Shown: positions 24,480-43,935 of the stretch, piece by piece
Layout: each line of letters opens with the position of its first letter
How positions within the stretch are numbered: position 1 is the first letter of the stretch
DNA from: Limisphaerales bacterium
GTDB taxonomy: Bacteria > Verrucomicrobiota > Verrucomicrobiia > Limisphaerales > JAYPEY01
Length of the DNA: 54,975 nucleotides
NCBI GenBank assembly: GCA_047618185.1
Contig: JBLHKZ010000003.1
Coordinates: forward strand, 1 to 54,975
Reading direction: 5' to 3'
Notes under the pieces: model-generated
Told to the model about the DNA's origin: nothing
What the model saw: only the letters and a program-made list of their open reading frames with translations
Database searches by the model: none
Program-made: the position numbers and the translations under genes

Positions 24480-27374
24480 TCACCGCTCAACGATCCGGAA
24501 AAACAGCGATGGCTCGATCCCAATAATCGCGTCGAAGATGTGAACGGCGCCGTCTCCAGACACCGACACTCCAACGTCAGTCCACGGGCCAGCCGCATTC
24601 GGCGACGATTGCAGTTGATAGGTGATGCCTGCGCCCGTGGCAAAACCGAGCGTCAGCTTGCCCAGCGCGGGCGTGAAACCCAACTCCAGCGGAACGGGCG
24701 TCGCCATCCCGGCGCTCGTCAGGAATTCAGACTCATTCAGGATCGTCCAGCCGGCCGCCCAGTTGGCGACGCCAAACGCGCCCACAAAGTTGGCCTGAAC
24801 AAAGAAATCATCGCCCGCCGGGGCGACGCGACTCGGCGCAAATGCCGGGCTGGCCATTGCCGGACGCGGATCCAGCCCGAACACGACGTTGATATCCAGC
24901 CCGCCAAGCATCGGATCGACAATCTGATTGGCCTTGCTCATATCCGTAAAGAACACAAGCGCGTCCGCCGAGGCAATGTCCGTCGCCGTGGATCCGGCGC
25001 CGAAATCGAAGAAGATGTTGCCCGCAATGTCGAGATCGCCCGCCGCCACGCGGGCCGCGGCATTGCTGTCCACACGAACCGCCTGATCGCCAAAGCCGGT
25101 GAAGATCGAGTTGTAGTATTTGCCCCCGGCGTTCTCCCGCATCCGCAGGGCGTCGCCACCCGTGCCCGCGCCCGAGCCAGGCCCGACATACGTCACGTTG
25201 TAAATCGTCGGATTGCTGAAGGGCGTCTTTGTGAAATCATCCACGTCGCCATCGTGCTCGCCTCCGTTGTCCATCGCGTTGTCGCCAATCGTAAACCAAA
25301 ACTGCCCCTTACCGCGCCAGCCCTGGTCGTAGTCGAACGAATCGTCTCCACAGAACGTCACGACCGCATACTTCACACCGACCGTCCCGCCGAAGAACTC
25401 AACGCCATCATCGAGGTTGGCGTAGACTTCGATGAACTCCACCGTCGTCCCTCGGCCCACGCCGCCGAGCGTCAGGCCGTTGATCTCGTTGTTGGAGCCG
25501 ATCGAAACGCCTCCGTGCCGGATCGACACGTAGCGGATCACGCCCGAGTTGTCGTTGTCGTCGCTTCCTCCGAACTGACCACGAGGCTCGCTGGTCGGGA
25601 TTCCCTCGATGTTGTCCATGATCGGACTGCCGGCCGCGGCGGGGCTGTTGAGCGTCGCCGCTCCGAGGACGATCAAGCCTCCCCAACGCCCGCGATCCGT
25701 CGGTCCCAGGTCAAAGGGGTCGCCCATGTCATCGGCCTCCGCCGTGAAGATGATGGGATCGGCGGCTGTGCCTTCGGCAAATATCTTTCCGCCCCGGGCG
25801 ACAACCAATGCCGAGGCGTTCTCATTGCTGCCTGGCTTGCCCTTGATCACCACACCCGGCTCGATCGTCAGCGTTTCGCCCGCCTCCACGAACACGCGCC
25901 CCTCCAGGAGGTAAGTGTTGCCCTTGCGCCACACCGCGTTGCCCTGAATGTCATTGGCCCCGCCGTCAATCACCGTGATTGTCTGACCCTGCGCCAACGC
26001 GTAGTTCGGCTCCGCCGCTCCCGCCTCGCTGATCAGGTCCGTCGCCCCCATGATCGTCCAGGCCGACGCCCAGTTGACCGTCCCGTCAAAGGCGCCCTTG
26101 AAGCTCACGTCGTTGAAGAACCCATCGCCCGGCTCGTCCAGTCCGGCCATTAGCGCCGGGCTGCCGCCCTGCAGTCGGGGATCGAATGCATCCGCCGCGT
26201 CGAAGATCCGCCCGATGCCCATCAACATCGGATCGCTGATCGCATTGCCTTTGGCCATGTCCGTGAAGAACACCTGCGCGTCGGTCGACGCGATATCCGC
26301 CGCGGTCGATCCGGCGCCGAAATCGAAGAAGAGGCTCTGCTGGATGTCCAGGTCGCCGGCGGTGACCCGCGCCCCGGCGTTGCTGTCGACTCGAACCGCC
26401 TGATCGCCAAAGCCGGTGAAAATCGAGTTGTAGTATTTGCCCGCGGCGTTCTCCCGCATCCGCAGAGCGTCTCCGCCCGTCCCGGCTCCCGAGCCGGGAC
26501 CGATGTAGGTCACGTTGTAAATCAGCGGATTGCTCAACGGCAGTTTCGTGAAGTCGTCCACATCGCCGTCATGTTCGCCGCCGTTGTCCATCGCGTTATC
26601 GCCAATCGTCAGCCAGAACTGGCCCTTTCCACGCCAGCCCTGATCGTAGTCAAAGCTGTCGTCTCCGCAGTAGCTCACCACAGCGTGCTTCACGCCGACC
26701 GTCCCGCCGAAGAACTCAACGCCATCATCCAGGTTGGCGTAGACTTCAACGAACTCCACGGTCGTCCCTCGGCCCACGCCGCCGAGCGTCAGGCCGTTGA
26801 TCTCGTTGTTGGAGCCGATCGAAACGCCTCCGTGCCGGATCGACACGTAGCGGATCACGCCCGAGTTGTCGTTGTCGTCGCTTCCTCCGAACTGACCACG
26901 AGGCTCGCTGGTCGGGATTCCCTCGATGTTGTCCATGATCGGACTGCCGGCCGCGGCGGGGCTGTTGAGCGTCGCCGCTCCGAGGACGATCAAGCCTCCC
27001 CAACGCCCGCGATCCGTCGGTCCCAGGTCAAAGGGGTCGCCCATGTCATCGGCCTCCGCCGTGAAGATGATGGGATCGGCGGCTGTGCCTTCGGCAAATA
27101 TCTTTCCGCCCCGGGCGACAACCAATGCCGAGGCGTTCTCATTGCTGCCTGGCTTGCCCTTGATCACCACACCCGGCTCGATCGTCAGCGTTTCGCCCGC
27201 TTCCACGAACACGCGCCCCTCGAGTAGATAGACATTGTCGGAGGTCCAGGTCGTATTGCCGACGATGTCATTGACGCCGCCGTCGGAGACGGCAATGTCC
27301 GCGGCCGCCGCGACAGAAACAGTAAGCGACATTGCGAAGAGGCAGGAGATACGTTTGCGGATTTCAGTGATCAT
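24480..27374 (-). CDS. Secreted protein with two tandem ~439-aa Asp/Gly-rich (beta-helix-like) modules and a short C-terminal domain
   Basis: Signal peptide; duplicated module (LTIEPGVVIKG, WGGLIVLG, SGVIRYVSIRHGG, EINGLTLGGVG, DDGVEFFGGTV, GDDSFDYDQG); tail YQLQSS..W...FFRIVER. Confidence 0.85.
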   Translation of the reverse strand: MITEIRKRISCLFAMSLTVSVAAAADIAVSDGGVNDIVGNTTWTSDNVYLLEGRVFVEAGETLTIEPGVVIKGKPGSNENASALVVARGGKIFAEGTAADPIIFTAEADDMGDPFDLGPTDRGRWGGLIVLGAATLNSPAAAGSPIMDNIEGIPTSEPRGQFGGSDDNDNSGVIRYVSIRHGGVSIGSNNEINGLTLGGVGRGTTVEFVEVYANLDDGVEFFGGTVGVKHAVVSYCGDDSFDYDQGWRGKGQFWLTIGDNAMDNGGEHDGDVDDFTKLPLSNPLIYNVTYIGPGSGAGTGGDALRMRENAAGKYYNSIFTGFGDQAVRVDSNAGARVTAGDLDIQQSLFFDFGAGSTAADIASTDAQVFFTDMAKGNAISDPMLMGIGRIFDAADAFDPRLQGGSPALMAGLDEPGDGFFNDVSFKGAFDGTVNWASAWTIMGATDLISEAGAAEPNYALAQGQTITVIDGGANDIQGNAVWRKGNTYLLEGRVFVEAGETLTIEPGVVIKGKPGSNENASALVVARGGKIFAEGTAADPIIFTAEADDMGDPFDLGPTDRGRWGGLIVLGAATLNSPAAAGSPIMDNIEGIPTSEPRGQFGGSDDNDNSGVIRYVSIRHGGVSIGSNNEINGLTLGGVGRGTTVEFIEVYANLDDGVEFFGGTVGVKYAVVTFCGDDSFDYDQGWRGKGQFWFTIGDNAMDNGGEHDGDVDDFTKTPFSNPTIYNVTYVGPGSGAGTGGDALRMRENAGGKYYNSIFTGFGDQAVRVDSNAAARVAAGDLDIAGNIFFDFGAGSTATDIASADALVFFTDMSKANQIVDPMLGGLDINVVFGLDPRPAMASPAFAPSRVAPAGDDFFVQANFVGAFGVANWAAGWTILNESEFLTSAGMATPVPLELGFTPALGKLTLGFATGAGITYQLQSSPNAAGPWTDVGVSVSGDGAVHIFDAIIGIEPSLFFRIVER
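25444..27200. repeat. Intragenic direct repeat: 25444-25883 is identical to 26761-27200 (440 bp, offset 1317 bp)
   Basis: Line-by-line comparison found no mismatch in this block. Flanking parts of the two modules carry many synonymous differences. Confidence 0.92.
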
Positions 27375-27425
27375 GTTCTTTGTTTCGTTCGTTTGTTGTC
27401 GAATACCGAAAAGACTAAAACAACC

Positions 27426-27469
27426 GAAGGTTACACCAGAGCGTCGGGCTTGTTACGCTTTGGTGAACT
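27426..27469 (-). promoter_or_regulatory. Pho-box-like 11-bp register repeats upstream of the tandem-module gene
   Basis: Minus strand: agTTCACcaaa gcGTAACaagc (one degenerate unit) gtGTAACcttc. Confidence 0.45.
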
Positions 27470-27550
27470 ACTGGATGGCTGCGCAACCGAAAGGGAGATT
27501 GCTGGTTCAACTTCTGTCCAAATTCGTCCGGGAAGGGTCCGCGGGCTCGA

Positions 27551-30499
27551 TCAAAAATCGTAGCTAAAGGCAATGCCGATCGAGCGGCCCTTCCGGTAGG
27601 ACGACACCGTGCCGACGCCGCTTCCGTCGGGTTGGTCCTGGGTTCGCTCCACCGACGGATCGAGGAGGTTCTTGGCTGAGAGCTTCACGGTCCACTTTTC
27701 GGTGAGCCTCTGGGACAGTCGAAAATCCAACGACGCAAACGAGGCTTCGAAAACGCTCGGCGCGATGCGGGAGGTCTTTTCGAGGCGCTCACCGTAGATG
27801 TTGAAGAAGACACTCGCGGTCGTGCCCAGATCCGGGTGGCGATAGGTAAGATCGAGATTGATGATGTACGGCGACTGTCCCTGCAGCGGACGCGTGTTGA
27901 TGCCACGCGCGTGCTTGTCGAACTCGAACCTCGTCGTGTCCACCTCCGAGCGAATGTAGGAGAAATTCGCGCCAAAGTTGAAGTTGCTGAGCGACGAATC
28001 GATGAAATCCAAATCCTTGCGCAACTCCGCCTCGAAACCGAACACCGTGGCTTTCTCACGATTGTTGTAGGTCACTTCGTGATTCGCCGAAATCTCCTCC
28101 TTCTCAATCGGCATCTTCAATGTCTTGTAGAAAAAGCCCCCGGCCAACACCTCGCCCGGACGGGGAAACCACTCCCAGCGAATGTCGTAATTCTGAATCG
28201 AAGTCTGCTCGAGCGCCGAGTTGCCCTGCAGAATATCGCCGCCAATAAAGTCAAAGGTTGGAACCGGGGAAATTTCGCGAAAGGTTGGCCGCGCCAGCGT
28301 CTGTCCGTAGGCGACGCGGAGATTCACGTTGGTCCGCATCGCATACACGAAACTCGCGCCCGGCAGGATATCCAGATTGCTCTTCGAGGTGGACCCCTGG
28401 GCGCCCGGGGAGGAAACCGCGGCGCCGTTGGCGTCCAACGACAGGGTTGACGCCTCGGCCCGAACGCCGCCGATGAAGTTCAGCCTCTCGGTCAACGCGA
28501 GGTCGAACATGCCATATCCCGCATCCACGGTCAGCTCGCCCGTGTAGTTGTTGAACGGCTCTTCGAAGGCGTAGACGTTGTAGCGAAACCCGCCGAATCG
28601 ATTGGGAGGCGGCTGCGGCTCAAATGCCGAATCGATGATGAACAGATCCGGGTCGCCAAGATGCGCAAAATCGTTGTTGGACCCGTAGGTGAAGCGACGC
28701 TCTTTGTAGTCCCGCTTCGACAACGATCGGTTCACCCCGAATTTCAACTCGCTGTCGAGTCCGTTCCACTGCTCGAACGGAATGCTTTGATCGATTTTCA
28801 GATTCAGATTGTTCTCGTTTAGCTCGCGAAAGAATCGTGTCGGCGCGGTGTAGGACGACAGATCGATGCTGGCGGCGCCGGTGACCGGGTTGCGGTCCAG
28901 GGCGAAGAAACGCCGGTCCGGCTCGTTCTGGCTCGTCGTCGCGTAGGAAACGCTCCAATCCGTCTGGGCCTCATATTTCCATGGCAGCTCATGTTTGCCC
29001 GCCAGTTGAAAGGACTGAATCTCCCGCTCGATGAAAGCCAGCGCGTAATTCTCGAACACCCGGCCCGCGACATTGTCGAGTGAGCCGAGTTGGGTGACGG
29101 CGGTGTCTTCGCTGTTCCGATTATAGAGAAAATTAAAGGTGATCTCGTGCCGATCGTAGAACTTCAGTCCGAGATTGACCAACGAACCCCAAGACACTTC
29201 CTCCGTCGATTTTGCCTCAACCACATCGAGATCCGCCTGCAGCGTTCCGGCGTTGTTCCTGAATTGCCGCCGGAAGCCGTCGTCGTAATTTTTGAAATCG
29301 CGGTCATACGAAACGCCCGCGAGATAACCGAAAGTGACGTTCTCCGTGAGATTCGTGCTGTCCCCGATGGAGACGCTGAAATTGTGGTTTGCCGGCGCCC
29401 TTCGTCGATCGGGCGTCAGCTTCGGAAAAAAGGCCTGACCCAGCGCGGCCAACTCCTCGCCCGCCGCCATCGCCGCCGCGCCCCGACCCGTCGCCTGATC
29501 CAGAAGCGGCCGCTCTCCCGTGTTCGGATTCGGGAGAATAACGTAATTCGGGCCCGCCCACTCATCTGGAATCGACCGTGTCCCATCGTCGAAACCCGCC
29601 CAGTCCCATTTGCCGTCGCCCGGCGTCGTGAGAAAGTCGTCCGTGCCCGTCGTCTGCGTGTTGTAGGACAGGCCGACGCTCGCATTGGAAAAGAACTCCT
29701 CGGGAAAACTCTTCGTCTTGATGTTCACCGAGCCGCCGCTGAAACTGCCCGGCTGATCCGGAGTAAAGGTCTTGCTGATCACGATCGAATCAATCGCCGA
29801 AGCCGGGAAAATATCCATCTGCACCGACTTGCGATCCGGGTCGGGGCTCGGCACGCCGCTGCCGTTTAGCATCGTGTTGCTGTAACGATCGCCCAATCCG
29901 CGAATGACCACATACTTGCCGCCAACCACCGAAGCGCCGGTGACTTTCGACATCGCCTCCGCCGCATTCGCCGCGCCCGCCCGTGAGATGAACTCCGAGC
30001 CGATCGCGTCAGTCACCGCGGACGCGTCCTGACGATCGGCAAGCAGCGCCGTGATCTGGTTTTCGGCGGGTGGATCGGAAATGACCTCGAATGGCTCAAG
30101 CTCCTGAACCACCGGCGACAGCGCGGCGTCCGCCTTCGTCACTTGTCCGACCGCCACGCGGATATCAACAATCGTCATGCGCTCAAACCCCGGCTTTGAA
30201 ACAAAGATCGCGTGAACGCCCGCGGGAATATTCTGAATCTGAAAACTTCCCTGGGCATCGCTTGTCCCGCCCAGCGTCGTTCCCCGCACGCTGACGACCG
30301 CGCCGGGAATCGACCCGCCACGCCCGAACGAATTCGACACCCGGCCCGCGATCGCGCCGCCCTCCGACGACTGCGCCAACGCCGCGCCGGGCAGGAGCGC
30401 CGCCAGGACGAGGGTCAACCAGCGCCGTAATAACGACAAAGGCGACCGGCAACGGGCATGGCTCGCCCGATCGGAATGACATTCCCGCTGTGGTGACAT
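27551..30499 (-). CDS. TonB-dependent receptor with N-terminal carboxypeptidase-regulatory-like domain
   Basis: Plug motifs VVIRGLGDRYS, MDIFPAS and FSGGSVNIKTK; barrel motifs ARPTFREI and NLLD; C-terminal aromatic residue (FSYDF). Confidence 0.95.
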   Translation of the reverse strand: MSPQRECHSDRASHARCRSPLSLLRRWLTLVLAALLPGAALAQSSEGGAIAGRVSNSFGRGGSIPGAVVSVRGTTLGGTSDAQGSFQIQNIPAGVHAIFVSKPGFERMTIVDIRVAVGQVTKADAALSPVVQELEPFEVISDPPAENQITALLADRQDASAVTDAIGSEFISRAGAANAAEAMSKVTGASVVGGKYVVIRGLGDRYSNTMLNGSGVPSPDPDRKSVQMDIFPASAIDSIVISKTFTPDQPGSFSGGSVNIKTKSFPEEFFSNASVGLSYNTQTTGTDDFLTTPGDGKWDWAGFDDGTRSIPDEWAGPNYVILPNPNTGERPLLDQATGRGAAAMAAGEELAALGQAFFPKLTPDRRRAPANHNFSVSIGDSTNLTENVTFGYLAGVSYDRDFKNYDDGFRRQFRNNAGTLQADLDVVEAKSTEEVSWGSLVNLGLKFYDRHEITFNFLYNRNSEDTAVTQLGSLDNVAGRVFENYALAFIEREIQSFQLAGKHELPWKYEAQTDWSVSYATTSQNEPDRRFFALDRNPVTGAASIDLSSYTAPTRFFRELNENNLNLKIDQSIPFEQWNGLDSELKFGVNRSLSKRDYKERRFTYGSNNDFAHLGDPDLFIIDSAFEPQPPPNRFGGFRYNVYAFEEPFNNYTGELTVDAGYGMFDLALTERLNFIGGVRAEASTLSLDANGAAVSSPGAQGSTSKSNLDILPGASFVYAMRTNVNLRVAYGQTLARPTFREISPVPTFDFIGGDILQGNSALEQTSIQNYDIRWEWFPRPGEVLAGGFFYKTLKMPIEKEEISANHEVTYNNREKATVFGFEAELRKDLDFIDSSLSNFNFGANFSYIRSEVDTTRFEFDKHARGINTRPLQGQSPYIINLDLTYRHPDLGTTASVFFNIYGERLEKTSRIAPSVFEASFASLDFRLSQRLTEKWTVKLSAKNLLDPSVERTQDQPDGSGVGTVSSYRKGRSIGIAFSYDF

Positions 30500-30539
30500 G
30501 AATCTGAAAATGCGCGCGGAGTGGCGGTTCGAATGCGAA

Positions 30540-32135
30540 TCAGGACCGCTTTCGCGCCGCCCGTTGAACCGCCTCCAAATAGCGTTGGATGTTGTCGCGA
30601 TACCGGACTTTCTGAGCCTGTGTCAGCAAATCGACAGCTCTGTCGTATTTCCGCGCGCGCACCTGCAATTGCGCGCGTTTGACCAGTCCGGCCGCTTCAA
30701 ATCCCTCAATCTGCGAAGCCAGATCGTAACGATGATCCGCCCTGGCCACCCGGACGGCCGCCTGCTCGTCGGTTTCCTCCTCCGGCGGCGCCGCGTAGTA
30801 ATCGCCGACCATCAACAGCGCCTCGGCATCCAACGGATTCTTTCCAATGATCTTCTCCAGAACTTCGATCGCCCGATCGCCCTCGCCGCTGGCCAACGCG
30901 GCTTTGGACTCCAGCTTCAGCAGTGTCATCTCCTCGGCCTCCTTGAGTTTCTCGCCGTGAAGGTCGCGGATCCTGCCGAAGATCGCGCGCGCCTCGTCCC
31001 AGGCCCCGCTGGCCGCCAGAATGCCCGCCGCGCGCAGCGAGCGGCGCACATCGTTCACACCGTCCTTTTCGATCGCCTCCAGGTAAACCGACAACGCCAG
31101 CATTGGAGATTCCTGGCTCATGTAGATGTCGCCGAGCAGCATAAGATTCGCGAGGCTGGCCTTTCCGAGCTTGCGGAGAATCTCGTAGTTGATGGCCGCT
31201 CGCTTCGGTTTTTCCATCTGCATGAAAAGACTCGCCTGAATGTCCCAAAGCCTCGCGTCGGTCGGATCGGCCTTGATCAGCGTTTCGAGAAAGGAGTCCG
31301 CGGAGCTCAGTTTGCCCTGCTCGATCTGGCAGGTGAGCAATCCCATTCTCCAATCGCGCTGACCCGGCATCAACATCATTGCGTTGCGATAGGCGCCCTC
31401 CGCTCCGATGTAGTTCTCGTGCTTCAAATGGCACACGCCAAGGATGCCGTAGACGTGGCCATCACCGCCGCCGAGCTCGATGGTCCGGGTCAATTCCGGA
31501 ATCGCCTCCTCAAACCGCTCCATGCCCACAAGCGAAATGCCGAGGTTCTTGTGCGCGCGAAGGAAATTGGGAAACTTGTCGATCGCGCTTCGATACGCGG
31601 GAACCGCCTTCTCGTGTTCGCTCTTTTGAAAATACAGGTTGCCCAGATAGTAATCGAAAATGGCGTTGTCGTTGGTCGTGACGTTCTCAGTGAGCAGCTT
31701 GATGGCGGCGTCCGTGTCGCGGGTCATCAGCGGAAACAACATTTCATTGTGGAACGACAGTTCATTGGTTCCGCCAATGAAGTTGGTGTTGGAGGCCGTT
31801 GGTTTTGGAGGCTCGATGTCCGTGCGATATCCGAAACTGCCGGCAAAGCTTTTCACAAAGTTGCGATCGGACCAGAATGCGGCCAGGGGGTTGTCCGAGG
31901 AAGGAGGATTGGAGAGTTTGAGGTTCCGCGGGATCGCTGCGCGACCCGTGGGAAGTCGAATCGGCGCCGGCTCGACCACGACGGCGGCGGCGGCAGCCTC
32001 AGTCGCCGAATCCGCTCCGCGCTCCTTGAGTTTGAAAAGTTGAGCCGCGCCTGTCGTCGGCATGGCGAGCGCCAACGCCAGCCAGCCATACCATGCCAAG
32101 GCGCGAATTCGAGAGACGTGAAATAGAGGCTTCAT
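30540..32135 (-). CDS. Periplasmic tetratricopeptide-repeat protein (TtpD-like)
   Basis: Signal peptide and multiple TPRs (YYLGNLYF...AHKNLG). Follows tonB in the operon. Confidence 0.85.
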   Translation of the reverse strand: MKPLFHVSRIRALAWYGWLALALAMPTTGAAQLFKLKERGADSATEAAAAAVVVEPAPIRLPTGRAAIPRNLKLSNPPSSDNPLAAFWSDRNFVKSFAGSFGYRTDIEPPKPTASNTNFIGGTNELSFHNEMLFPLMTRDTDAAIKLLTENVTTNDNAIFDYYLGNLYFQKSEHEKAVPAYRSAIDKFPNFLRAHKNLGISLVGMERFEEAIPELTRTIELGGGDGHVYGILGVCHLKHENYIGAEGAYRNAMMLMPGQRDWRMGLLTCQIEQGKLSSADSFLETLIKADPTDARLWDIQASLFMQMEKPKRAAINYEILRKLGKASLANLMLLGDIYMSQESPMLALSVYLEAIEKDGVNDVRRSLRAAGILAASGAWDEARAIFGRIRDLHGEKLKEAEEMTLLKLESKAALASGEGDRAIEVLEKIIGKNPLDAEALLMVGDYYAAPPEEETDEQAAVRVARADHRYDLASQIEGFEAAGLVKRAQLQVRARKYDRAVDLLTQAQKVRYRDNIQRYLEAVQRAARKRS

Positions 32136-32149
32136 GGGGTAAGTCAGAG

Positions 32150-32815
32150 TCAGGAATTGACGTTGAATTGGATTTGCTGCCGAACGTAGACACTGACAGC
32201 CCCGCCTTCGCGTTGACCGGGTTTAAACTTCCACCGACGCACGGCATCCAGGGCGGGCTTCTCAAACTCAGGCCGACTAGAATTCTCCACCCGCGCTTCC
32301 TCGACCCGGCCCTGGTCGTTCACGACGAACAACAGGACGACCGAACCCGAAACCTTCTGTTTGAGCAGGCTTGGGGGATGTTTGGGCCGGACCGGACCGA
32401 CGAGCATGGGTTTGCTGTCCAAATCGGAAAGTTCGAAAACCTCCGCCTGATCCATCTGGGCGGCCGCGCCCACAAAACTCGCGAGACGATCATTCAAGGC
32501 GCCTCCAGTTCCCATGCCAATGTCGAGACTCGGAATCTCAAACGACATGTCGTTCGCCGCGAGGTCGAGTTCCGGCACGGGTTCCGGCTCCGGCTCCGGC
32601 TCGGGTTCGGGCTCTTCCTCCTCGACCACCGGAGGCGGGGGCGGGGGCTCAAGGGTCGCCGTCTCAAGGCCTGTCAGGACCTTGTCGACGCGACCGGCCG
32701 ACAGCATCTGGGTGAGCGGCAGCACGAGAAACACCGAGGCCGTCAGGAGGATCGCGCCGAACACCGCGCGCATCCAGCCGCCGCCAATCTCGGGTGGGGT
32801 AAATACTTTTCTCAT
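32150..32815 (-). CDS. tonB: Energy transducer TonB
   Basis: N-terminal TM, a Pro/Glu linker (EPEPEP) and TonB_C (FEKPALDAVRRWKFKPG). Confidence 0.93.
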   Translation of the reverse strand: MRKVFTPPEIGGGWMRAVFGAILLTASVFLVLPLTQMLSAGRVDKVLTGLETATLEPPPPPPVVEEEEPEPEPEPEPEPVPELDLAANDMSFEIPSLDIGMGTGGALNDRLASFVGAAAQMDQAEVFELSDLDSKPMLVGPVRPKHPPSLLKQKVSGSVVLLFVVNDQGRVEEARVENSSRPEFEKPALDAVRRWKFKPGQREGGAVSVYVRQQIQFNVNS

Positions 32816-32838
32816 CGATGCATTCCTCCAGCGCGCGC

Positions 32839-33246
32839 TCAGCCGTCCTTGTCCGTTGCCAGACTCACGTTTTCGGCGCCGCCCATGCGGGCCTCGTCCA
32901 CGACCGACATCACCACCCCGGCGTGGGCGCCTTTAAGCGCCTTGACGATCACCGGCGATTCCTCGCGCACCGCCTTGTCGCGCACCAGAGCCCGCACGCC
33001 CGCGACCCCGACTTCCTTGCCGTCAAGGATCACCTGCCCCCTGGCGTCCACTTCGAAAATCAGACTTTCGCTCTCCGACATGGAGACGCTGGCGCTCTGC
33101 GGCCGATCCACCCCCACGCCGCTTTCCTCAACGAAAACCGTGGTGACGATGAAAAAGATCAGGAGGATAAAAACCATGTCGATCAACGGGGAAATGTTGA
33201 TCTCCTCGATCTCATCGGAATCCTGAATGGAACGTCGGCCTCTCAT
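32839..33246 (-). CDS. exbD: Biopolymer transporter ExbD (copy 2)
   Basis: EINISPLIDMVFILLIFFIVTT with the conserved TM Asp. Confidence 0.93.
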   Translation of the reverse strand: MRGRRSIQDSDEIEEINISPLIDMVFILLIFFIVTTVFVEESGVGVDRPQSASVSMSESESLIFEVDARGQVILDGKEVGVAGVRALVRDKAVREESPVIVKALKGAHAGVVMSVVDEARMGGAENVSLATDKDG

Positions 33247-33252
33247 CGGTCG

Positions 33253-33657: not shown

Positions 33658-33669
33658 GGACGGCGGGCG

Positions 33670-35932: not shown

Positions 35933-35947
35933 TCGCGTGGGGGAAAA

Positions 35948-36727
35948 TCAGTTCACCTTGATCGGGAGTCCGACGTAGGCGGCGGGTTGCGCGCTGTCAT
36001 AGATGGCCAGAGTCTTGGCGACGAGCGGCGCCAGTTCCTTGTTCTCGGCCCACTCCCAGCCGGTCGCCGTGGCGGTTCCCGTTCCGGCGTAATTGCCGTT
36101 CTTGTCGGTGTAGAAAGCCTGACCCAGTCCGAGATAGAGCGTGCGAACCTGGATTTCGCCGCCTTCGGAGATTTGCCGCACCTCGGGTTCAACACGGACC
36201 GAGCCGTTGAATTCGTCGACCGCCTTGAGCATGCCGATCAAAACCTGGACACGCTTGCCCTCGGTCATTTTGGTGCTCGCCGGATCCACGGGCATCATCG
36301 CAAACAGCGGCGTGATCTTGTCGATCACCGGCGGCGGCAAACGCTTGTGAAGCTTTTGGAACTTGGCTTCAAACCTCGTGAGCAGCGCGCCGATTTTATC
36401 GAGCGCCGATTTCAATTCCTCGTTTTCGACCGTCTGCTCCTCGATCTCTTTCTTGATCTGTTGGTTGCCCTTGTTCTGGCCTGCGCCCGATTCGATGGCC
36501 TTGAGCTGGTCGTCCAGGCGTTTGAGCTCTCCCTCGAACAGTCCGATGGCCGCCCCGAGCGTTTCACGGTCGGAGAGCCAGTCAGCCTCGACGCGGCCCA
36601 AAGTCATTCGCGCCTCGACCCATTGCTGAAGCGTTGCGCGCGTATCTCCAATTTCATCCTGGGCGTGGGAGCCCTGTGATAAACTGGCGGACATGAATCC
36701 AACCGACACCCAGATTCGAAATTTCAT
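35948..36727 (-). CDS. DUF3450-family (TtpB-like) periplasmic coiled-coil protein
   Basis: Signal peptide, coiled coil and LYLGLGQAFY...WEW. First gene of a TtpC-ExbB-ExbD-TonB operon. Confidence 0.8.
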   Translation of the reverse strand: MKFRIWVSVGFMSASLSQGSHAQDEIGDTRATLQQWVEARMTLGRVEADWLSDRETLGAAIGLFEGELKRLDDQLKAIESGAGQNKGNQQIKKEIEEQTVENEELKSALDKIGALLTRFEAKFQKLHKRLPPPVIDKITPLFAMMPVDPASTKMTEGKRVQVLIGMLKAVDEFNGSVRVEPEVRQISEGGEIQVRTLYLGLGQAFYTDKNGNYAGTGTATATGWEWAENKELAPLVAKTLAIYDSAQPAAYVGLPIKVN

Positions 36728-36745
36728 GTCGCCACTCTCCGGCCG

Positions 36746-36789
36746 ATCAATTACGACAGCGTGACGAGGAAGTTACGATTCCGTGACAG
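36746..36789 (-). promoter_or_regulatory. Four-unit Pho-box-like direct repeat array oriented toward the TonB operon
   Basis: Minus strand: CTGTCACGGAA TCGTAACTTCC TCGTCACGCTG TCGTAATTGAT. The 11-bp period with a GT(C/A)A(C/T) core resembles the PhoB consensus CTGTCAT-N4. Confidence 0.75.
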
Positions 36790-36848
36790 GCATGGCTGAT
36801 CCAATGAAATAGTTGGAAGAAGGAGGCCGCTTGATTCTCTTAGCTCAC

Positions 36849-37653
36849 ATGGCTGTTTCAGTGATGCTGTTCATTCTGGTTCTCGGCCTGGCATTCTGGA
36901 ATGGCGCCAATGATGTCTCCAAAGGCATCGCCACCCTCGCGGGCAGCGGCGGCGACGTTCGCGCGAATGCCGGTGTCCACCACGCACGCAATCACCGGAT
37001 CGCTGGTGGGCGCGGGGATCGTCGTTGCGGGGGTCGGCGGGTTGGCATGGCAAAGATTGATTGAGAAGTTTCTGATCCCGTTGGCGGTGAGCCCGATTCT
37101 GGCTCTCGCGTTCACCTTCGCGCTGTATCCGTTGTTCCAACGACTCATGGCAAAGCTGGCTCAGCATTGCCTGTGCCTGTCCAGCTCCACCGGAGGCATC
37201 GTTCCCCTGGAAAACAACGCCGTCGCAATGACAACCAACGGCGCATGCGTTATCTCCGAGTCCTCCGAGTCCTGCGGCGCCAACCCCGAAATCACTCGCC
37301 GGCTAAACCTGCCCTCGAACGCCGCGCTTCTCGCAGTGGCGGTCGCGATGGGACTTGGAAGCGCGCTCGCCGGCTTCAAAGTCACCGAGACCCTCGCCAC
37401 CAAAGTCACGTCCATGTCTCCGGCCGAAGGCTGCTCGGCCAACCTCGTCACAGCCGCTCTGGTGATCGTCGCCTCCCGCCTCGGAGCGCCAGTTTCCACG
37501 ACTCACGTGAGTTCCTGCTCGATCATTGGCATGGGCCTCAAACGCGATGCCCGGTCCATCCAATGGAAAACTGTACGTGAAATGCTCTTCGCCTGGATCG
37601 TCACGCTGCCTGTTGCCGGTCTGATCGCCGCCGCAGTGGCATGGCTGCTTTGA
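36849..37653 (+). pseudogene. Inorganic phosphate transporter (PiT/PHO4 family), frameshifted with internal deletions
   Basis: One frame gives FWNGANDVSKGIATLAGSG. It then shifts frame to MPVSTTHAITGSLVGAG...PVSTTHVSSCSIIG...AWIVTLP. The intervening TMs and the second GxND motif are missing. Confidence 0.8.
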
Positions 37654-37687: not shown

Positions 37688-37709
37688 TTGTCACACAACT
37701 GTAACATTG
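37688..37709 (+). promoter_or_regulatory. Pho box upstream of the phosphate porin
   Basis: TTGTCACACAA CTGTAACATTG, a near-consensus two-unit box. Confidence 0.8.
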
Positions 37710-37777: not shown

Positions 37778-39181
37778 ATGAAACAACTGAACCAAAAAGT
37801 GAAACGATGCCTCACGGCAACCGTCGCCTTCATTGCGCTTGGGAGCCTTTGCGTAGCCGCCCACGCTCAATCAAACGACGCCCTGCTCGACGCCTTGATC
37901 AAGAAGGGCATCTTGACCAAAGACGAGGCCACGGCAATCCAGACCGAAGCGGCGCAACCCGGGACCGTCGCCATGCCAGTCAGAGAACTCAGCCCGATCA
38001 CAGCCGATCCGGAATTCAAGTCCATTCTCGACAAGGCAATCAACGAAAGACTGGATGGAAAGTGGTACAACAAGCTGAAACTCGCTGGCTACACCCAGGT
38101 TCGCTACACGAGCCTCTTCAATCAAAGCGGAGCCGTCCTGAACGTGCCCAACGACGGATCAGCCCGGGATAGTGAGTCGCTTCGAATCCGCCGGGGCCGG
38201 ATCAAGTTTTCCGGCGACGTGGCGGAGCGGCTCTACCTCTACGCTCAGATGGATTTCGCGGCGTCCGTCGGCGGCGGTTTCGCCCTGCAAATGCGCGACC
38301 TTTACGGGGATCTGGCCTTGGACGCCAACAAGGAATTCCGCGTTCGTCTTGGACAGTCGAAGGTCCCCTTTGGCTTCGTGAACCTCCAATCGAGCCAGAA
38401 CCGCCCGACGCTTGAACGAGCAGACGGCATCAACAGCGCCGCAGAAAACGAACGTGATATTGCCGCGATCTTTTATTGGACCCCCACGGAAGTTCAGAAG
38501 CGCTTCAAGGAGATGAAGAAGCTGGGCCTTAAGCATTCGGGAAATTATGGCATGCTGGGCCTCGGTATTTACAACGGGCAAGGTCCCAATCGAAACGACG
38601 TCAACGGCGCCTTTCACACGGTGGCCAGGGCGACCTACCCGTTCAAGTTTGACAACGGTCGGTTTCTGGAACTGGGCGTCCAGGCCTACCACGGCGAATA
38701 TCAGGTCAGCACAGTGGATCCCGATGGCCTCGGACTGCTGGTGACTCCCTCCGCCGGCGCGAACGGCACGACCGACCAGCGCGTCGGAGGCAGCATCATT
38801 CTCTATCCCCAGCCATGGGGTGTGGAGGCGGAATGGAACGTGGGTCGCGGTCCGACTCTGAGTCCGGATCTCACTCGCGTCGACTCAACCTTCCTTCACG
38901 GCGGATACCTGATGGCCTACTACCAGAAGGAAACCAGCTGGGGACGTTTCTTTCCCTACGTCAGGTGGAACTACTACGACGGCGGACGAAAATTTGCCGC
39001 CAACGCCCCGGGATCCGTCGTCAATGAAATGGATTTCGGCGTGGAATGGTCGCCGTGGCCCTACGCCGAGTTGTCCGTTCAATACACCAAGACCTTTGAG
39101 CGCACCAACACGGGAGTGGCGCCCTACGCATCAACCACAGATGCGGATCGCGTAGGATTTCAATTGCAGTTCAACTATTGA
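37778..39181 (+). CDS. Phosphate-selective porin OprO/OprP family
   Basis: Signal peptide, LLDALIKKGILT, RIRRGRIKFSG, RLGQSKVPFG..NLQSSQNR..LER and C-terminal QLQFNY. Lies upstream of pstS. Start placed at ATG 37778. Confidence 0.85.
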   Translation: MKQLNQKVKRCLTATVAFIALGSLCVAAHAQSNDALLDALIKKGILTKDEATAIQTEAAQPGTVAMPVRELSPITADPEFKSILDKAINERLDGKWYNKLKLAGYTQVRYTSLFNQSGAVLNVPNDGSARDSESLRIRRGRIKFSGDVAERLYLYAQMDFAASVGGGFALQMRDLYGDLALDANKEFRVRLGQSKVPFGFVNLQSSQNRPTLERADGINSAAENERDIAAIFYWTPTEVQKRFKEMKKLGLKHSGNYGMLGLGIYNGQGPNRNDVNGAFHTVARATYPFKFDNGRFLELGVQAYHGEYQVSTVDPDGLGLLVTPSAGANGTTDQRVGGSIILYPQPWGVEAEWNVGRGPTLSPDLTRVDSTFLHGGYLMAYYQKETSWGRFFPYVRWNYYDGGRKFAANAPGSVVNEMDFGVEWSPWPYAELSVQYTKTFERTNTGVAPYASTTDADRVGFQLQFNY

Positions 39182-39299: not shown

Positions 39300-40154
39300 A
39301 TGAAGAAACTGATTCAATCCATCTGCGCCGCGGCCATTGTCGCGACCGCCGCAACCGCCCAGGCCGGAACCATCACCGCCAAGGGCTCGGACACCCTCGT
39401 GATTCTCGCCCAGAAATGGGCCGAGGTTTACATGGCTCAAAACCCCGGCACGACCATCCAGGTCACCGGCGGCGGCTCGGGCACCGGATTTGCGGCCCTG
39501 CAGAACAAGACCACCGACCTGGCCAACGCCTCCCGCAAGATCAAGGCCAAGGAAAAGATCGCCTGCATCAAGGCCTTCAGAAAATCGCCGACCGAATACA
39601 AGGTCGCGCTGGACGGACTGTCGGTCTACGTCAACGCCGCCAACGGCGTCGAACACCTCACCATCGACCAGCTCGACAACATCTTCACCGGCAAGATCAC
39701 CGACTGGAGCCAGGTCGGCGGCAAAGCGGGAAGGATCACGGTCTATAGCCGCGAGAACAGCTCGGGCACCTATGAGTTTTTCAAGAAGAACGTGCTCAAA
39801 GGAAAAGACTTCGTCGCCCGCGCCCAGACCATGCCCGGCACCGCCGCCGTGCTCCAGGCCGTTGGCAAGGACACGACCGGCATCGGCTACGGCGGCGCCG
39901 CCTACGGAGGTGGAGCCAAGACCATCCTCGTGAAAAAGGACGCGAATTCACCCGCGATCGCGCCAACCGAAGAAAACGTCATCAGCGGCAGGTATCCGAT
40001 CTGGCGTTACTTGTATATCTACGTGAACCCCGCGCTCGACAAGGGCGAGGTCGGCGCCTACCTGAAGTGGATCCGCTCGGCCGACGGCCAAAAAATCGTC
40101 AAAAACGTCGGCTATTACCCGCTGCCGAAAGCCATGCAACTCTCCTCTCGATAG
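39300..40154 (+). CDS. pstS: Phosphate ABC transporter substrate-binding protein
   Basis: Motifs KGSDT, GGGSGTG, DLANASR, SRENSSGT and YPIWRYLY. Confidence 0.95.
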   Translation: MKKLIQSICAAAIVATAATAQAGTITAKGSDTLVILAQKWAEVYMAQNPGTTIQVTGGGSGTGFAALQNKTTDLANASRKIKAKEKIACIKAFRKSPTEYKVALDGLSVYVNAANGVEHLTIDQLDNIFTGKITDWSQVGGKAGRITVYSRENSSGTYEFFKKNVLKGKDFVARAQTMPGTAAVLQAVGKDTTGIGYGGAAYGGGAKTILVKKDANSPAIAPTEENVISGRYPIWRYLYIYVNPALDKGEVGAYLKWIRSADGQKIVKNVGYYPLPKAMQLSSR

Positions 40155-40264: not shown

Positions 40265-41446
40265 TTGTCAGTGACCAGTCCATCCGGCAAATCCAGCGAC
40301 TCCCGATGGACCGGCATTCTTCGCGGGAAGAAGCGTCGCCCGCTGGAGTGGCTCGTTGAGAAAGGCATCTTCCTCGTTTCCCTGTCCGCGATCCTGATGG
40401 TGTTTCTCATCTTCCTGTTCGTCGGACGGGAAGCCTTGCCGATCTTCCTCGGCAAGATGGACAGCTCGGTGGAAATCGACGTTGTCCAACCCGATCAAAT
40501 GGCCTCGCTTTCCAAAGCGGAGCTGCAGACGTATCTCGAACTGTCGGACGACGAGTTCGTCGAGATGGACGAGGAGACCCTCATGCTGATGATGGAGGTC
40601 AAGGTGGAGGAGGCCGCCGAAGCGCCCGAAGACAAGGACGCCGCCGTCAACACCACGGAGTGGAAATACCTGCTCAAACCCTACCAATGGACAGGCTATG
40701 ACAAACCCGAACACATCTGGCAGCCCGTTTCCGAGATTCACAAATACAACATCGTTCCCCTCCTGATCGGCAGCCTGAAGGCGACGCTCGTCGCGCTGCT
40801 ATTCGCCGTGCCGCTCTCGCTTGCCGCCGCCATCTATGTCTCCCAATTGGCAAAACCGCGCGTCAAGGAATGGCTCAAACCCGCGATCGAAATGCTCGCC
40901 GGCATCCCCTCGGTCGTGCTCGGTTTTTTTGCGCTGCTCGTCATGGCGACCGTGTTGCAAAAAGTCTTCAACTACGATTCGCGTCTGAACACCTTTGTCG
41001 CCGGCATCGCGCTGGGCCTGGCGATCGTGCCGGTCATTTTCTCGATCGCGGAGGATGCGCTGACCAGTGTGCCTCGCAGCTACACGCAGGCCGCGCTGGC
41101 GCTGGGCTCCTCAAAGTGGCAGGCCGCCTGGCGCATTGTCCTGCCGGCCGCGCTGCCCGGTGTATTCGCCGCCGTCGTTCTCGGCTTCGGTCGCGCAATC
41201 GGTGAAACCATGATCGTCCTCATGGCCAGCGGCAACGCCAGCATCGTCTCCTGGGACATTCTCGAATCCGCGCGCACCATCACCGCGACGATCGCCGCCG
41301 AGCTGGCCGAGACCGTCTTCGGCGGCCACCACTACCGAATGCTTTTCATGCTCGGCACGATTCTCTTCGCCGTAACCTTCGTCTCCAATCTCGCGGGCGA
41401 CCTCATCATTCATCGCCTCAAGAAGAAACTGGAGGGCAACGCCTGA
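40265..41446 (+). CDS. pstC: Phosphate ABC transporter permease PstC
   Basis: IEMLAGIPSVVLGFF and GFGRAIGETM. Start is TTG 40265 or GTG 40271. Confidence 0.95.
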   Translation: MSVTSPSGKSSDSRWTGILRGKKRRPLEWLVEKGIFLVSLSAILMVFLIFLFVGREALPIFLGKMDSSVEIDVVQPDQMASLSKAELQTYLELSDDEFVEMDEETLMLMMEVKVEEAAEAPEDKDAAVNTTEWKYLLKPYQWTGYDKPEHIWQPVSEIHKYNIVPLLIGSLKATLVALLFAVPLSLAAAIYVSQLAKPRVKEWLKPAIEMLAGIPSVVLGFFALLVMATVLQKVFNYDSRLNTFVAGIALGLAIVPVIFSIAEDALTSVPRSYTQAALALGSSKWQAAWRIVLPAALPGVFAAVVLGFGRAIGETMIVLMASGNASIVSWDILESARTITATIAAELAETVFGGHHYRMLFMLGTILFAVTFVSNLAGDLIIHRLKKKLEGNA

Positions 41447-42399
41447 TGAGCGCGAAGAACACGCCGAATCAGTTCCACCGCCAGAGCTTCGATCTGGCCT
41501 CGTTCTTTTTCTCCGGCCTCACCGGACTGGCGACCGCGCTCATCCTGGGCATCCTCGCCGTCATTCTGATCAATGTCACCTGGCATGGCTGGGAGGGCAT
41601 TTCGCTGCGCTTCATCATTTCCGGCACGGACCAGGACATGTTCGACGTCAACAAGGCCGGCGTGCTGCCCATGATCGTCGGCACCTCCGCCCGCGTTATC
41701 CTGATGACGATCTTCGTCATACCCGTCGGCGTTATCACCGCCATCTACCTGACCGAATACGCCAACCCAATTTCCGTCTACACCCGCGTCATCCGCGGCG
41801 CGGTAAACAACCTCGCGGGCGTGCCTTCGATCGTCTTCGGCCTGTTTGGACTGGGTTTTTTCATCGGCTTTGTCGGCGGTGAAATGGACGCGCTATTCTA
41901 TCCCGACAGTGACGAGCCGGTCTGGGGCAAGCCCGCCATTCTCTGGGCTTCAATGACGCTCGCGGTGATGACCCTTCCCGTCGTGATCGTCGCAACCGAG
42001 GAATCGCTGAAATCCATCGCGCCGGGCCTGCGCGAAGCAAGTCTGGCCCTCGGCGCCACCAAACTGCAAACCGTCGTCAAGGTCGTGCTCCCGCAGGCGC
42101 TGCCCGGCATTCTGACCGGCGGCATCCTTTCGATCAGCCGCGCGGCCGGCGAAGTCGCGCCCATCCTTTTCACCGGCGCCGCCTACTACATGTCCGGCTA
42201 CCCGACCGGTCCCACCGATCAATTCATGGATCTGGGCTATCATGTTTTCATTCTCTCGACCCAGTCGCCCAACATCGAGCAGACCCGGCCCATTCTTTAC
42301 GCGACCGTTCTGGTCTTGCTGCTGCTCACGTTCACCCTGAATATTGTCGCCGTTCTCGTGCGCGCCAAAATGCGCCGTGGAATGCGCCAAAGCCACTAG
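41446..42399 (+). CDS. pstA: Phosphate ABC transporter permease PstA
   Basis: [22 protein letters not shown] and RAAGEVAP. Confidence 0.95.
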
Positions 42400-42413: not shown

Positions 42414-43247
42414 ATGTCCCAATCCTCCGCCACCGCCCCGCTCGCCCGGCCTGCCGTTCAGGAAAAGGAATCCGCGCCGCGCCCCGACGACGACGCGCCG
42501 CTGATCGAGGTGGAGGACCTTTCGCTCTTCTACGGCGACTCGCCTGCGTTGAAGAACATTTCCTTTTCCATCCGCGAGAAAGTCGTGACAGCTTTCATCG
42601 GCCCCTCGGGCTGCGGCAAGTCCACCTTGCTGCGCTGTTTCAATCGCATGAACGACCTCATCGACGACGTGCGCATCGAGGGCCGCGTCACGATCGGCGG
42701 CGAGGAGATCTACGGACCCGGAGTCGACGCGATCGAACTGCGCAAACACGTGGGCATGGTGTTCCAACGCTCCAATCCCTTTCCGAAATCAATCTACGAA
42801 AACATTGCCTACGGGCTGCGCCTGCACGGGATGAAGCAAAAGGCCGCGCTCGATGAGGCGATTGAAACCAGCCTCCAACAGGCCGCGCTCTGGGACGAGG
42901 TCAAGGACCGCCTCCACACCAGCGCGCTCAGCCTCTCGGGCGGACAGCAACAACGGCTCTGCATTGCCCGTGCCATTGCTATAAAGCCGACTGTCCTGCT
43001 GATGGACGAGCCCGCCTCGGCTCTCGATCCCATCGCCACCGCCCGTATCGAAGACCTGGCGCTCGAGCTGAAGGAGGATTTCACCATCGTCATTGTCACC
43101 CACAACATGCAGCAGGCCGCGCGCATCTCCGACGACACCGCCTTTTTCTATCTCGGCGAGCTGATCGAATTCAGCGCCACCTCAAAGATCTTCACCAACC
43201 CAACCGAAAAACAGACCGAAGATTACGTCACCGGCCGCTTCGGCTGA
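42414..43247 (+). CDS. pstB: Phosphate ABC transporter ATPase PstB
   Basis: [23 protein letters not shown] and YVTGRFG. Confidence 0.97.
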
Positions 43248-43263
43248 TTCCTCATTGCATCTC

Positions 43264-43935
43264 ATGTCCCACTTCCAACAAGAACTCGCCGATCTCAAGG
43301 AAACCCTGCTGCGCATGGCGGCGCTGGCCAAAGGCGTCGTCAACAAGGCCGTCAAATCGCTCATCGAGCGCGACGACGTGCTCGCTCAGGAGGTCCAGGA
43401 CGAGGACAACGCCATCGATGAGCTGGAGATCCTCGTCGATGAAAAAGCAGTCCTGCTGCTCTCCAAGGCGCCCCTCGCCAACGATCTGCGACTGATCACC
43501 GTCGCGCTGAAAACCTCCAACGACCTGGAGCGCGTCGGCGACGAATCCACCACGATCGCGCGTCGAGCCATGGAACTGAACAAGGAGCCCCAGCTCAAGG
43601 AGTACATCGACATCCCCCGCATGACCAACATGGCGATGGAGATGCTCGACGATGCCCTGGACGCCTTCGTCAACGCCGACGCCGCCAAGGCCAAGTCAAT
43701 CGTCCCCCGCGACAAGGACGTGGACGCGCTCAACAAGCAGATGCACCGCGAGCTCGCCGGCTACATGATCGAAGATCCCAAGAACATCACGCGCAGCCTG
43801 CACCTGATGACGATCTCCAAAAGCCTGGAACGCATCGCCGACCACGCCAAGAACATCGCCGAGGAAGTCGTGTTTCTCTACGAAGGCCGCGACATCCGCC
43901 ACGCCGCCAATCTGAGCGCCGATCGTCAAGTTTGA
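43264..43935 (+). CDS. phoU: Phosphate signalling protein PhoU
   Basis: Duplicated PhoU motifs DLERVGD and LERIADHAKNIAE. Confidence 0.96.
   Translation: MSHFQQELADLKETLLRMAALAKGVVNKAVKSLIERDDVLAQEVQDEDNAIDELEILVDEKAVLLLSKAPLANDLRLITVALKTSNDLERVGDESTTIARRAMELNKEPQLKEYIDIPRMTNMAMEMLDDALDAFVNADAAKAKSIVPRDKDVDALNKQMHRELAGYMIEDPKNITRSLHLMTISKSLERIADHAKNIAEEVVFLYEGRDIRHAANLSADRQV

Follow-up and report, generated by a model that had tools for sequence, protein, structure and literature searches.

The closest described counterparts of the system considered here are pairs in which an extracellular beta-helix protein is matched with a TonB-dependent receptor. In Caulobacter crescentus, the outer-membrane-anchored lipoprotein ElpS (CC0170) is made under phosphate starvation, is released via type II secretion and was reported to raise the activity of alkaline phosphatase. 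Its gene adjoins that of the TonB-dependent receptor CC0171, and many bacteria have conserved this pair (Le Blastier et al. 2010, PMC2996285). Here, we examine a comparable pair in a Limisphaerales bacterium (Verrucomicrobiota; assembly GCA_047618185.1, contig JBLHKZ010000003.1, positions 1 to 54,975; this whole stretch of 54,975 nucleotides is called the window hereafter), in which a secreted 964-amino-acid (aa) protein and the adjoining receptor are joined to a TonB2-type energiser back-to-back with a pst phosphate-import locus. We consider it likely that in this Verrucomicrobium of the sea or sea ice the locus is a PhoB-controlled phosphate-starvation operon for uptake across the outer membrane. 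That the locus is real and has a link to phosphorus is well supported.

In Flavobacterium johnsoniae, depletion of inorganic phosphate (Pi) induces two such pairs. One comprises the receptor Fjoh_0545 and the lipoprotein FII (Fjoh_0546), which has a pectin-lyase fold and no Pfam family and is encoded with its receptor in a phoBR cluster that includes oprP; the other comprises FI (Fjoh_3856), the exoprotein of highest abundance (18.7%), and the receptor Fjoh_3857, and neither FI and FII nor the receptors responded to nitrogen or iron limitation (Lidbury et al., ISME J, PMC8115612). FI to FIII (FIII being Fjoh_4889) are 31-36% identical to ElpS, and the FI/FII/FIII loci were named 'PUSIII/PUSIV' (PMC8115612). 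BT4056 of Bacteroides thetaiotaomicron is another Pfam-less member of the pectin-lyase superfamily, 40% identical to Fjoh_0546 and distant to ElpS; it was proposed to be the lid of the non-SusC transporter BT4055, a role that is a prediction with few high-confidence contacts, and the proximity of the two is conserved in 621 genera (Price 2023, bioRxiv 10.1101/2023.03.17.533168). In Flavobacterium and Caulobacter, few products of phosphate starvation are as strongly induced or as abundant as such pairs, which occur in hundreds of genera. As for energisers, the Vibrio TonB2/TonB3 systems have the gene order ttpB-ttpC-exbB-exbD-tonB-ttpD, and iron limitation induces the TonB2 operon of Vibrio vulnificus, which carries a Fur box (PMC6957404). 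In Pseudomonas aeruginosa, exbB2-exbD2-tonB4 (PA0693-PA0695) is up with the phosphate-starvation sigma-VreI regulon and was described by its authors as still uncharacterised (PMC7035377), and the PhoB regulon of Caulobacter includes Pho-controlled TonB-dependent receptors (PMC11208175).

A receptor and beta-helix pair joined to a TonB energiser

Nine co-directional genes stand head to tail on the minus strand of the window, divergent from a PiT remnant-porin-pstSCAB-phoU series (Pfam, NCBIfam). The intergenic gaps on the minus strand measure 6-49 nucleotides (nt), with the exception of 176 nt ahead of the last gene. The operon begins with a DUF3450 (TtpB-like) protein (35948-36727; PF11932, E 9e-22) that has an N-terminal signal-like segment, followed by a 504-aa TtpC-like protein (34418-35932) with a C-terminal MotA/TolQ/ExbB domain (PF01618, E 5e-30, residues 330-449), ExbB (33670-34368; PF01618) and two copies of ExbD (33253-33657, PF02472, E 1e-23, and 32839-33246, PF02472, E 3e-27), which are 51% identical to each other (tblastn). 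The open reading frame (ORF) of exbB ends at 33670, and its likely start is the ATG at 34368, with a GGA-rich stretch ahead. TonB (32150-32815; Pfam TonB_C, E 9e-16) is followed by a 531-aa protein with tetratricopeptide repeats (TPR; 30540-32135; several TPR Pfam families), the TonB-dependent receptor (27551-30499; PF00593, PF14905 or OMP_b-brl_3, PF13620 and PF07715 or Plug, with an N-terminal CarboxypepD_reg domain) and, last, the 964-aa protein (24480-27374), which is Pfam-less, comprises two acidic parallel beta-helix modules and probably belongs to the ElpS / Beta_helix_4 family. Every gene of the original prediction, including a broken PiT gene and the tandem-module protein, was recovered in this annotation at the same position.

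The energiser agrees with TonB2/TonB3 systems in having DUF3450 in first place, followed by a long TtpC-like protein, ExbB, two ExbD and TonB. TtpD is a TPR protein, and the TPR protein of the window stands in the position of Vibrio TtpD, to which it is likened by position alone. In its DUF3450, long MotA/ExbB, ExbB, ExbD, TonB and last accessory gene, the order matches that of Vibrio TonB2, and it recalls Vibrio TonB3, whose operon also carries a receptor gene (PMC6957404). Unlike in Vibrio TonB2, ExbD is duplicated, the receptor and beta-helix genes are placed at the 3' end, and a Pho-box-like array stands where the Fur box would be; a 19-nt Fur-box consensus with up to 3 mismatches had no match in the window, which is a weak test because the consensus comes from distant bacteria. 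The P. aeruginosa set shares the link of a TonB complex to phosphate starvation, although it consists of only the three genes for ExbB, ExbD and TonB, without DUF3450, TtpC or TPR genes, is under extracytoplasmic function (ECF) sigma control and has no reported ElpS-type partner (PMC7035377).

The receptor and the beta-helix protein very probably belong to the family of ElpS, Fjoh_0546 and BT4056, to which we liken them by described properties, because these coincide: a Pfam-less beta-helix, a non-SusC receptor with the same Pfam domains and, among the homologues found, lipoprotein forms in Bacteroidales and Flavobacteriales, a phoBR/oprP context in Flavobacteriales and, in some relatives, a neighbouring gene for the type II secretion component T2SS-K. 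As with ElpS and CC0171, the gene of an extracellular protein lies beside that of a TonB-dependent receptor, with a link to phosphate mobilisation, and type II secretion genes lie near Caulobacter elpS (PMC2996285), just as a T2SS-K gene adjoins the module gene in two of the homologous loci described below (L004 and L011). ElpS is a lipoprotein with a single module, whereas the window protein carries an ordinary signal peptide and has a second module as well as an additional C-terminal domain; unlike for the window, no TonB energiser was reported for the Caulobacter cluster (PMC2996285). The F. johnsoniae pairs likewise combine a non-SusC receptor (Plug, CarbopepD_reg_2, OMP_b-brl_3) with a Pfam-less exoprotein of pectin-lyase fold, and the Flavobacteriales relatives of the window module share the Fjoh layout of PhoR-like gene, PhoB-like gene, lipoprotein module, receptor, Na/Pi transporter and porin O/P. 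The Fjoh proteins are, in contrast, one-module lipoproteins of ~450-570 aa; their cluster holds no energiser genes, and regulators rather than a pst operon adjoin (PMC8115612). With BT4055/BT4056 the window shares a Pfam-less pectin-lyase-superfamily protein beside a non-SusC TonB-dependent transporter (bioRxiv 10.1101/2023.03.17.533168). Because the window protein is tandemly duplicated and, unlike BT4056, not a lipoprotein, a simple lid geometry is less obvious here.

The original prediction regarded the whole system as a candidate undescribed one. This does not hold for the pair, since pairs with such properties have been published as phosphate-starvation-induced (PMC2996285, PMC8115612) and proposed to be transporter and lid (bioRxiv 10.1101/2023.03.17.533168). 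What is new is the joining of the pair with a TonB2-type energiser under a conserved Pho-box-like site, the tandem non-lipoprotein modules and the widespread linkage to pst. With this locus, the pair in Verrucomicrobiota becomes connected to a complete TonB motor through a conserved regulatory site. The survey below further indicates that pst, phoU, PiT and porin genes are commonly linked to the pair in many phyla, beyond this one genome.

Phosphate-gene linkage and Pho-box-like sites

We surveyed homologous loci in two scans with one genome per species, which yielded 158 loci with flanks of 8-10 kb at most; genes were counted by tblastn with a query cover of at least 50%, and the 83 loci of at least 17 kb served as a subset. 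A receptor related to that of the window adjoins the module gene in 116 of the 158 loci and in 79 of the 83 longer ones. At least one phosphorus (P) gene, i.e., PhoU, PstS, PstC/A, porin O/P, PiT, DUF47 or Na/Pi transporter, is present in 53 of 158 (41 of 83), an OmpR-type (PhoB-like) regulator lies in the flanks of 20 (11 of 83), and 68 (48 of 83) have either a P gene or a regulator. Among the regulators tested, the PhoB model was the best NCBIfam match in 11 of 12 and the second best in the twelfth, with all scores below the curated cut-offs. As a baseline, P genes occur in only two places in the window's own genome, with ~0.8% of positions within 10 kb of them; the linkage observed is ~30-50 times this baseline. 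The full energiser stands beside the receptor-module pair in 10 of the 158 loci, all of Verrucomicrobiota (nine close to the window, and L091).

The arrangement of these genes varies. In the window, pst is divergent from the operon, whereas it lies downstream on the same strand in L001, and DUF47-PiT lies downstream in L005 and L006. PstS is encoded directly upstream of the receptor in L058, in many loci of Latescibacterota and Gemmatimonadota, and in Opitutales, while in Flavobacteriales the PhoR- and PhoB-like genes are divergent from the lipoprotein module and receptor, with a Na/Pi transporter and porin O/P nearby. Because the arrangements differ between lineages, the linkage points to function rather than inherited synteny. 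Candidate cultured carriers among the loci are Thalassobacterium maritimum SDUM461003 (L093, where PstS, porin, receptor and module occur together), Pontibacter or Rufibacter species (L114, L125 and L140) and Roseithermus sacchariphilus (L126).

Two candidate regulatory sites are present in the window. An array of four 7-nt direct repeats with an 11-nt period lies on the minus strand (36750-36789) and ends 22 nt ahead of the DUF3450 start codon, and a site of two repeats lies on the plus strand (37689-37705), 73 nt ahead of the porin start. The architecture is that of a classical Pho box, with 7-nt direct repeats separated by 4-nt spacers, and the repeat resembles the core CTGTCAT of the Escherichia coli Pho box (PMC4415409). 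Of the prediction that Pho-box-like arrays precede units on both arms, the array on the TonB arm stood; on the pst arm there is just one box, of two repeats, ahead of the porin gene. The pattern YGTMAY-N5-YGTMAY has 4 matches in the window, where 0.12 would be expected over its 55 kb, three of the matches overlapping in the minus-strand array (36750-36788) and one lying on the plus strand, although this count is circular because the pattern was derived from those very sites. Across the genome (5.93 Mb), it occurs 20 times against 4 for a reversed control, and the sole overlapping triple is the DUF3450 array; matches outside the window lie mostly inside genes or beside genes without a clear phosphate role.

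The loci of relatives were fetched by protein similarity alone. Counted from the first DUF3450 residue in the alignment, a box on the strand of the operon lies 45-111 nt upstream in seven of the eight loci that cover this region (L001, L003, L006, L008, L009, L010 and L011; L004 is without a box, and L002 and L005 were excluded as the region upstream of DUF3450 falls outside the locus). Only L001 among the seven has pst alongside, and since the other six have no adjacent pst, it is the TonB operon to which the box belongs. Porin-pstS in L001 is likewise preceded by a box, nearly identical to the first, and in the Opitutaceae locus L091 one stands ahead of a DUF3450 cluster that converges on a PstS-receptor-module unit. 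Taken together, the 158 loci hold 81 pattern matches against 13 in the control. The site in seven of eight relatives, P genes at 53 of 158 loci against the ~0.8% baseline and PhoB-like regulators at 20 loci support the original prediction, both in its association of the operon with pst/pho genes and Pho boxes and in placing it in the phosphate-starvation regulon with a P-tied role in TonB-dependent import.

Motif scans gave nothing significant ahead of pstS or the 964-aa gene, and scans for promoters and terminators gave matches at chance level. The E. coli Pho-box consensus, tried with up to 3 mismatches, was rejected as a probe, with 2 matches against 2.4 expected and neither at the candidate sites. 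Elsewhere in the genome, a position weight matrix (PWM) matches strongly only at C439:3175-3210, C26:6137 and C6:5123. The site on contig C439 has three repeats and adjoins genes for a MauG-like di-haem peroxidase and a metallo-beta-lactamase-fold protein; PhoX also has a MauG-like gene as its companion in the Pho regulon of Flavobacterium (PMC8115612).

Acidic modules and plausible ligands

The 964-aa protein consists of two modules (~residues 25-463 and 464-900), ~439 aa apart and 81-82% identical, followed by a C-terminal domain of ~65 aa. Its signal peptide has no lipobox cysteine near the cleavage region; a lipobox is present in the Bacteroidales and Flavobacteriales homologues, and the lipoprotein signal thus varies within the family found. 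Scans of the protein with NCBIfam and an older Pfam gave no family even at E 10, and comparison of the module with sequences of solved structures (PDB) gave nothing at E <=1. The module family is nevertheless large, with 8037 clusters at E <=0.001 and 2998 at E <=1e-30 in a search of 1.84 billion representative proteins; at least two matched stretches were found in 140 of the best 150 clusters, a ranking by total score that favours multi-module proteins. In the ESM Atlas, the three nearest clusters (score 0.98) carry PF28492 Beta_helix_4 (Pfam 38.1) in 100% of their members.

The AlphaFold2 model of the module is a right-handed parallel beta-helix of high predicted confidence (pLDDT 91.7, pTM 0.93). 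VIA matches it to many beta-helix proteins at Z 20-22.5, among them the alginate epimerase/lyase 8ja4 (Z 22.5, root-mean-square deviation 3.5 over 271 residues), AlgE4 (2pyg, Z 21.6), NosD (7o0y, Z 21.1), the PL6 lyase 7dmk (Z 21.0) and the PL9 lyase 1ru4 (Z 21.0), with phage tailspikes also among the matches, and the top Foldseek match is a PL6 lyase (E 1e-3). However, 142 chains reach Z >=8, and identity to the best matches is only 5-17%; because so many matches have similar Z and low identity, the module is a generic beta-helix, and these comparisons speak for fold and not for function. The likeness to the PL6 and PL9 families is likewise in fold only (Z 21, identity 11-14%). In an alignment of 41 modules, translated unchanged from the loci, the median isoelectric point (pI) is 4.07 and the median net charge -40, and among 53 invariant columns Asp/Glu occupies 13 and Arg only one; D145, E167, D192/D193/E196, D214/D215/D218/D220 and E243 form a row of invariant acidic residues. 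Such acidity makes it unlikely that the modules bind naked polyanions (e.g., polyphosphate or DNA) directly. A pI of ~4 together with invariant acidic residues favours cation-bridged or mineral-associated P (e.g., metal-phytate), or a metal, and in this way narrows the range of plausible ligands; of the cargoes in the original prediction, mineral-bound P and phytate, the latter as a metal complex, fit this best.

Module number also varies. Identity between modules within a protein is 81-92%, compared with 55-81% between orthologous modules of different genomes (window 24672-27302; L002, L003, L004, L006, L011), and close relatives differ in having between 1 and 4 or more modules (in L003 as many as ~5, judging from protein length). 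Since modules are more alike within than between genomes and vary in number, the pattern fits repeated independent duplication or gene conversion.

On the reading that we prefer, namely a PhoB-controlled uptake operon, PhoB would bind the DUF3450 repeat array and the porin box when phosphate is low, and a single transcript would supply the TonB2-type energiser, the receptor and the secreted two-module ElpS-family protein. The beta-helix protein may then capture or process an extracellular P-bearing ligand at the cell surface, most likely a cation-bridged one, and pass it to its cognate receptor, with import driven by the co-expressed TonB complex; phosphate freed in the periplasm would enter via the PstSCAB system encoded next door. 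A more specific and rather speculative extension, for which we hold only modest expectations, is that ElpS-family modules are multi-cation-binding beta-helices that capture cation-bridged P (e.g., colloids of calcium or iron phosphate, or phytate or polyphosphate complexed with metals) and deliver it to a receptor dedicated to this task. In Verrucomicrobiota, a TonB2-type motor of its own, under PhoB control, would power that receptor, module number would be tuned by repeated intragenic duplication, and the 12.4-kb cassette would be gained or lost in natural populations. If true, such multi-cation capture would be the phosphorus counterpart of siderophore-type uptake.

Several observations weigh against PhoB control and a dedicated uptake route. 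The sites deviate from the E. coli consensus at more than 3 of 14 positions, and pattern and PWM scans did not find the motif ahead of the genome's PhoX gene (C258) or its PhoD-like genes, which means either that the motif is not a general PhoB site or that the PWM is too narrow; this PWM, built from 12 sites, finds few more in the genome (at a score >=18, 5 against 1 in the control). As the array ends 22 nt from the start codon, its last repeat probably overlaps the -10 region, and not all four repeats can sit upstream of the -10 element. In the flanks surveyed, 105 of the 158 loci are without a P gene. CC0171 was reported to be constitutive, and its deletion left ElpS production unchanged (PMC2996285). 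In all, the genome encodes four receptors with a Plug domain and two TonB proteins, and it has another energiser of DUF3450 type, so the energiser in the window need not serve this receptor alone; the second TonB2-type cluster (C69:18660-22550) comprises DUF3450, TtpC-like, ExbD and TonB genes, and the contig end cuts off its upstream region. On the supporting side, a weak sign that the operon is transcribed in the sea comes from two studies: in three of their marine metatranscriptome runs, contigs contain short, near-identical pieces of most of its genes. These pieces are silent on conditions and could be DNA carry-over, and window parts without RNA contigs are uninformative.

The absence of the motif before the PhoX and PhoD genes, the circularity of the window-level count and the second, similar energiser on contig C69 are what could be expected if the repeats were not PhoB sites and a general-purpose TonB2 energiser with an unrelated receptor merely adjoined pst. 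We regard this as improbable, because the motif recurs upstream of the operon in seven of eight relatives and before porin-pstS in two genomes, and because the pst linkage of the receptor-module pair recurs across phyla in different arrangements. Polysaccharide uptake, with the beta-helix protein as a secreted depolymerase or glycan binder and the proximity to pst incidental or a matter of general nutrient scavenging, is suggested by the best fold matches, which are lyases, epimerases and tailspike depolymerases (Z 21.0-22.5; Foldseek PL6 E 1e-3), and binding or hydrolysis of plant cell-wall glycans was suggested by Lidbury et al. (PMC8115612). The low identities and the 142 chains noted above make these matches those of a generic beta-helix, though, and the receptor is not of SusC type, scoring 19 bits against a cut-off of 368 for the SusC model and 218 against 310 for TIGR01782. 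Pfam scans of 149 neighbour ORFs at 36 loci gave no glycoside hydrolase, polysaccharide lyase, sulfatase, other carbohydrate-active enzyme (CAZyme) or SusD (a further 182 selected neighbour ORFs were covered by targeted tblastn only), so that the locus does not have the make-up of a SusCD-type polysaccharide utilisation locus. With the P-gene linkage and the conserved Pho-box-like site also opposed to it, we consider glycan uptake very unlikely.

PhoX needs Fe and Ca, and the genome encodes PhoX and several PhoD-like enzymes. The system could thus be one for metal import that is still Pho-regulated, in which the acidic beta-helix binds Ca2+, Fe3+ or another cation and the receptor imports it to load phosphatases such as PhoX. 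The acidity of the modules and their 13 invariant Asp/Glu positions against one Arg would suit this role; in addition, what was reported of ElpS is stimulation of alkaline phosphatase activity rather than carriage of phosphorus (PMC2996285), and TonB2-type energisers are best known from iron uptake (PMC6957404). On the other hand, no ABC-type metal importers or siderophore genes were found among the 149 neighbour ORFs scanned, phosphate transporters dominate the neighbours, and the window has no Fur-box match (a weak test, as said). The sole recurrent metal-related neighbour is a SCO1-CusF fusion on the opposite strand in four Verrucomicrobial loci. We therefore hold metal import to be rather unlikely and retain P uptake under PhoB control as the probable function.

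The pst arm, neighbouring genes and occurrence in marine samples

The window has a G+C content of ~60%, and its nearest public genomes are Verrucomicrobiota metagenome-assembled genomes labelled Verrucomicrobiales, Limisphaerales or Pedosphaera. The source genome measures 5.93 Mb and is 88% complete. On the plus strand, the PiT (PHO4) gene (36849-37653) is broken and lacks internal parts: its N-terminal signature runs from 36849 in a frame other than that of the remainder, and the remnant ORF (36901-37653) aligns only to residues 112-173 and 367-452 of the 469-aa PiT from L005. It is followed by the phosphate-selective porin O/P (37778-39181; PF07396, E 4e-30), whose likely true start at 37778 is that of a signal peptide, and by PstS (39300-40154; TIGR02136, 249.7 bits against a cut-off of 206.6), PstC (40265-41446) and PstA (41446-42399), both assigned by Pfam BPD_transp_1 and gene order, PstB (42414-43247; Pfam ABC_tran) and PhoU (43255-43935; PF01895, E 5e-42, two stretches). 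PstS, PstC, PstA, PstB and PhoU are thus encoded in one operon, as a complete Pst importer.

Directly after phoU (43967-46760) come a minus-strand gene for a LysR-type regulator and a plus-strand gene for a SulP/STAS anion transporter. On the other side of the operon, SecA (20245-23313, minus strand; 1022 aa) matches SecA_DEAD over residues 7-526; as the profile has only 290 positions, an insertion of ~230 residues in that domain is implied. In relatives, the SCO1/SenC-CusF fusion on the opposite strand and then a 3-dehydroquinate synthase gene lie downstream of the module gene in L003, L007, L008 and L010, with a molybdopterin oxidoreductase in place of the fusion in L006 and L009. Some survey loci (L076, L030, L077 and L112) stand on contigs labelled Marinovum, Hyphomicrobiales or Thalassovita (Alphaproteobacteria). 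At least two of these look misbinned, since the module of L076 is nearest to Coraliomargaritaceae/Opitutales and L030 has neighbours of the type IX secretion system (T9SS) kind; when the L076 homologue served as the seed of a scan, the loci returned were from Verrucomicrobiota, Latescibacterota, Gemmatimonadota and Bacteroidota, with no Caulobacter among them.

At least 80% of the sampled words of window 27300-37200 are present in 17 DNA runs that bear the labels seawater, marine, estuary or ice metagenome; three of those from ice may be the source. The organism is hence widespread in cold marine waters, and as its DNA occurs in a large number of metagenomes from seawater and sea ice, the system may be of importance to the cycling of phosphorus in the sea. 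One contig of DNA run X4 (depth 19.3, shorter side 63 letters) joins position 24473 straight to 36845 and skips 12,371 bases, exactly the DUF3450-to-module cluster with its Pho-box array; no boundary repeats were found at this skip. Depth in X4 is ~8-14 over the cluster compared with 21-31 over pst. Together, the junction contig and the lower depth suggest that the cassette may exist in only part of the natural population. Over the TonB linker region (32248-32901), the summed depth is very high in all four runs, up to ~5770 (X4), presumably because this low-complexity, proline-rich coding sequence is common to other organisms.

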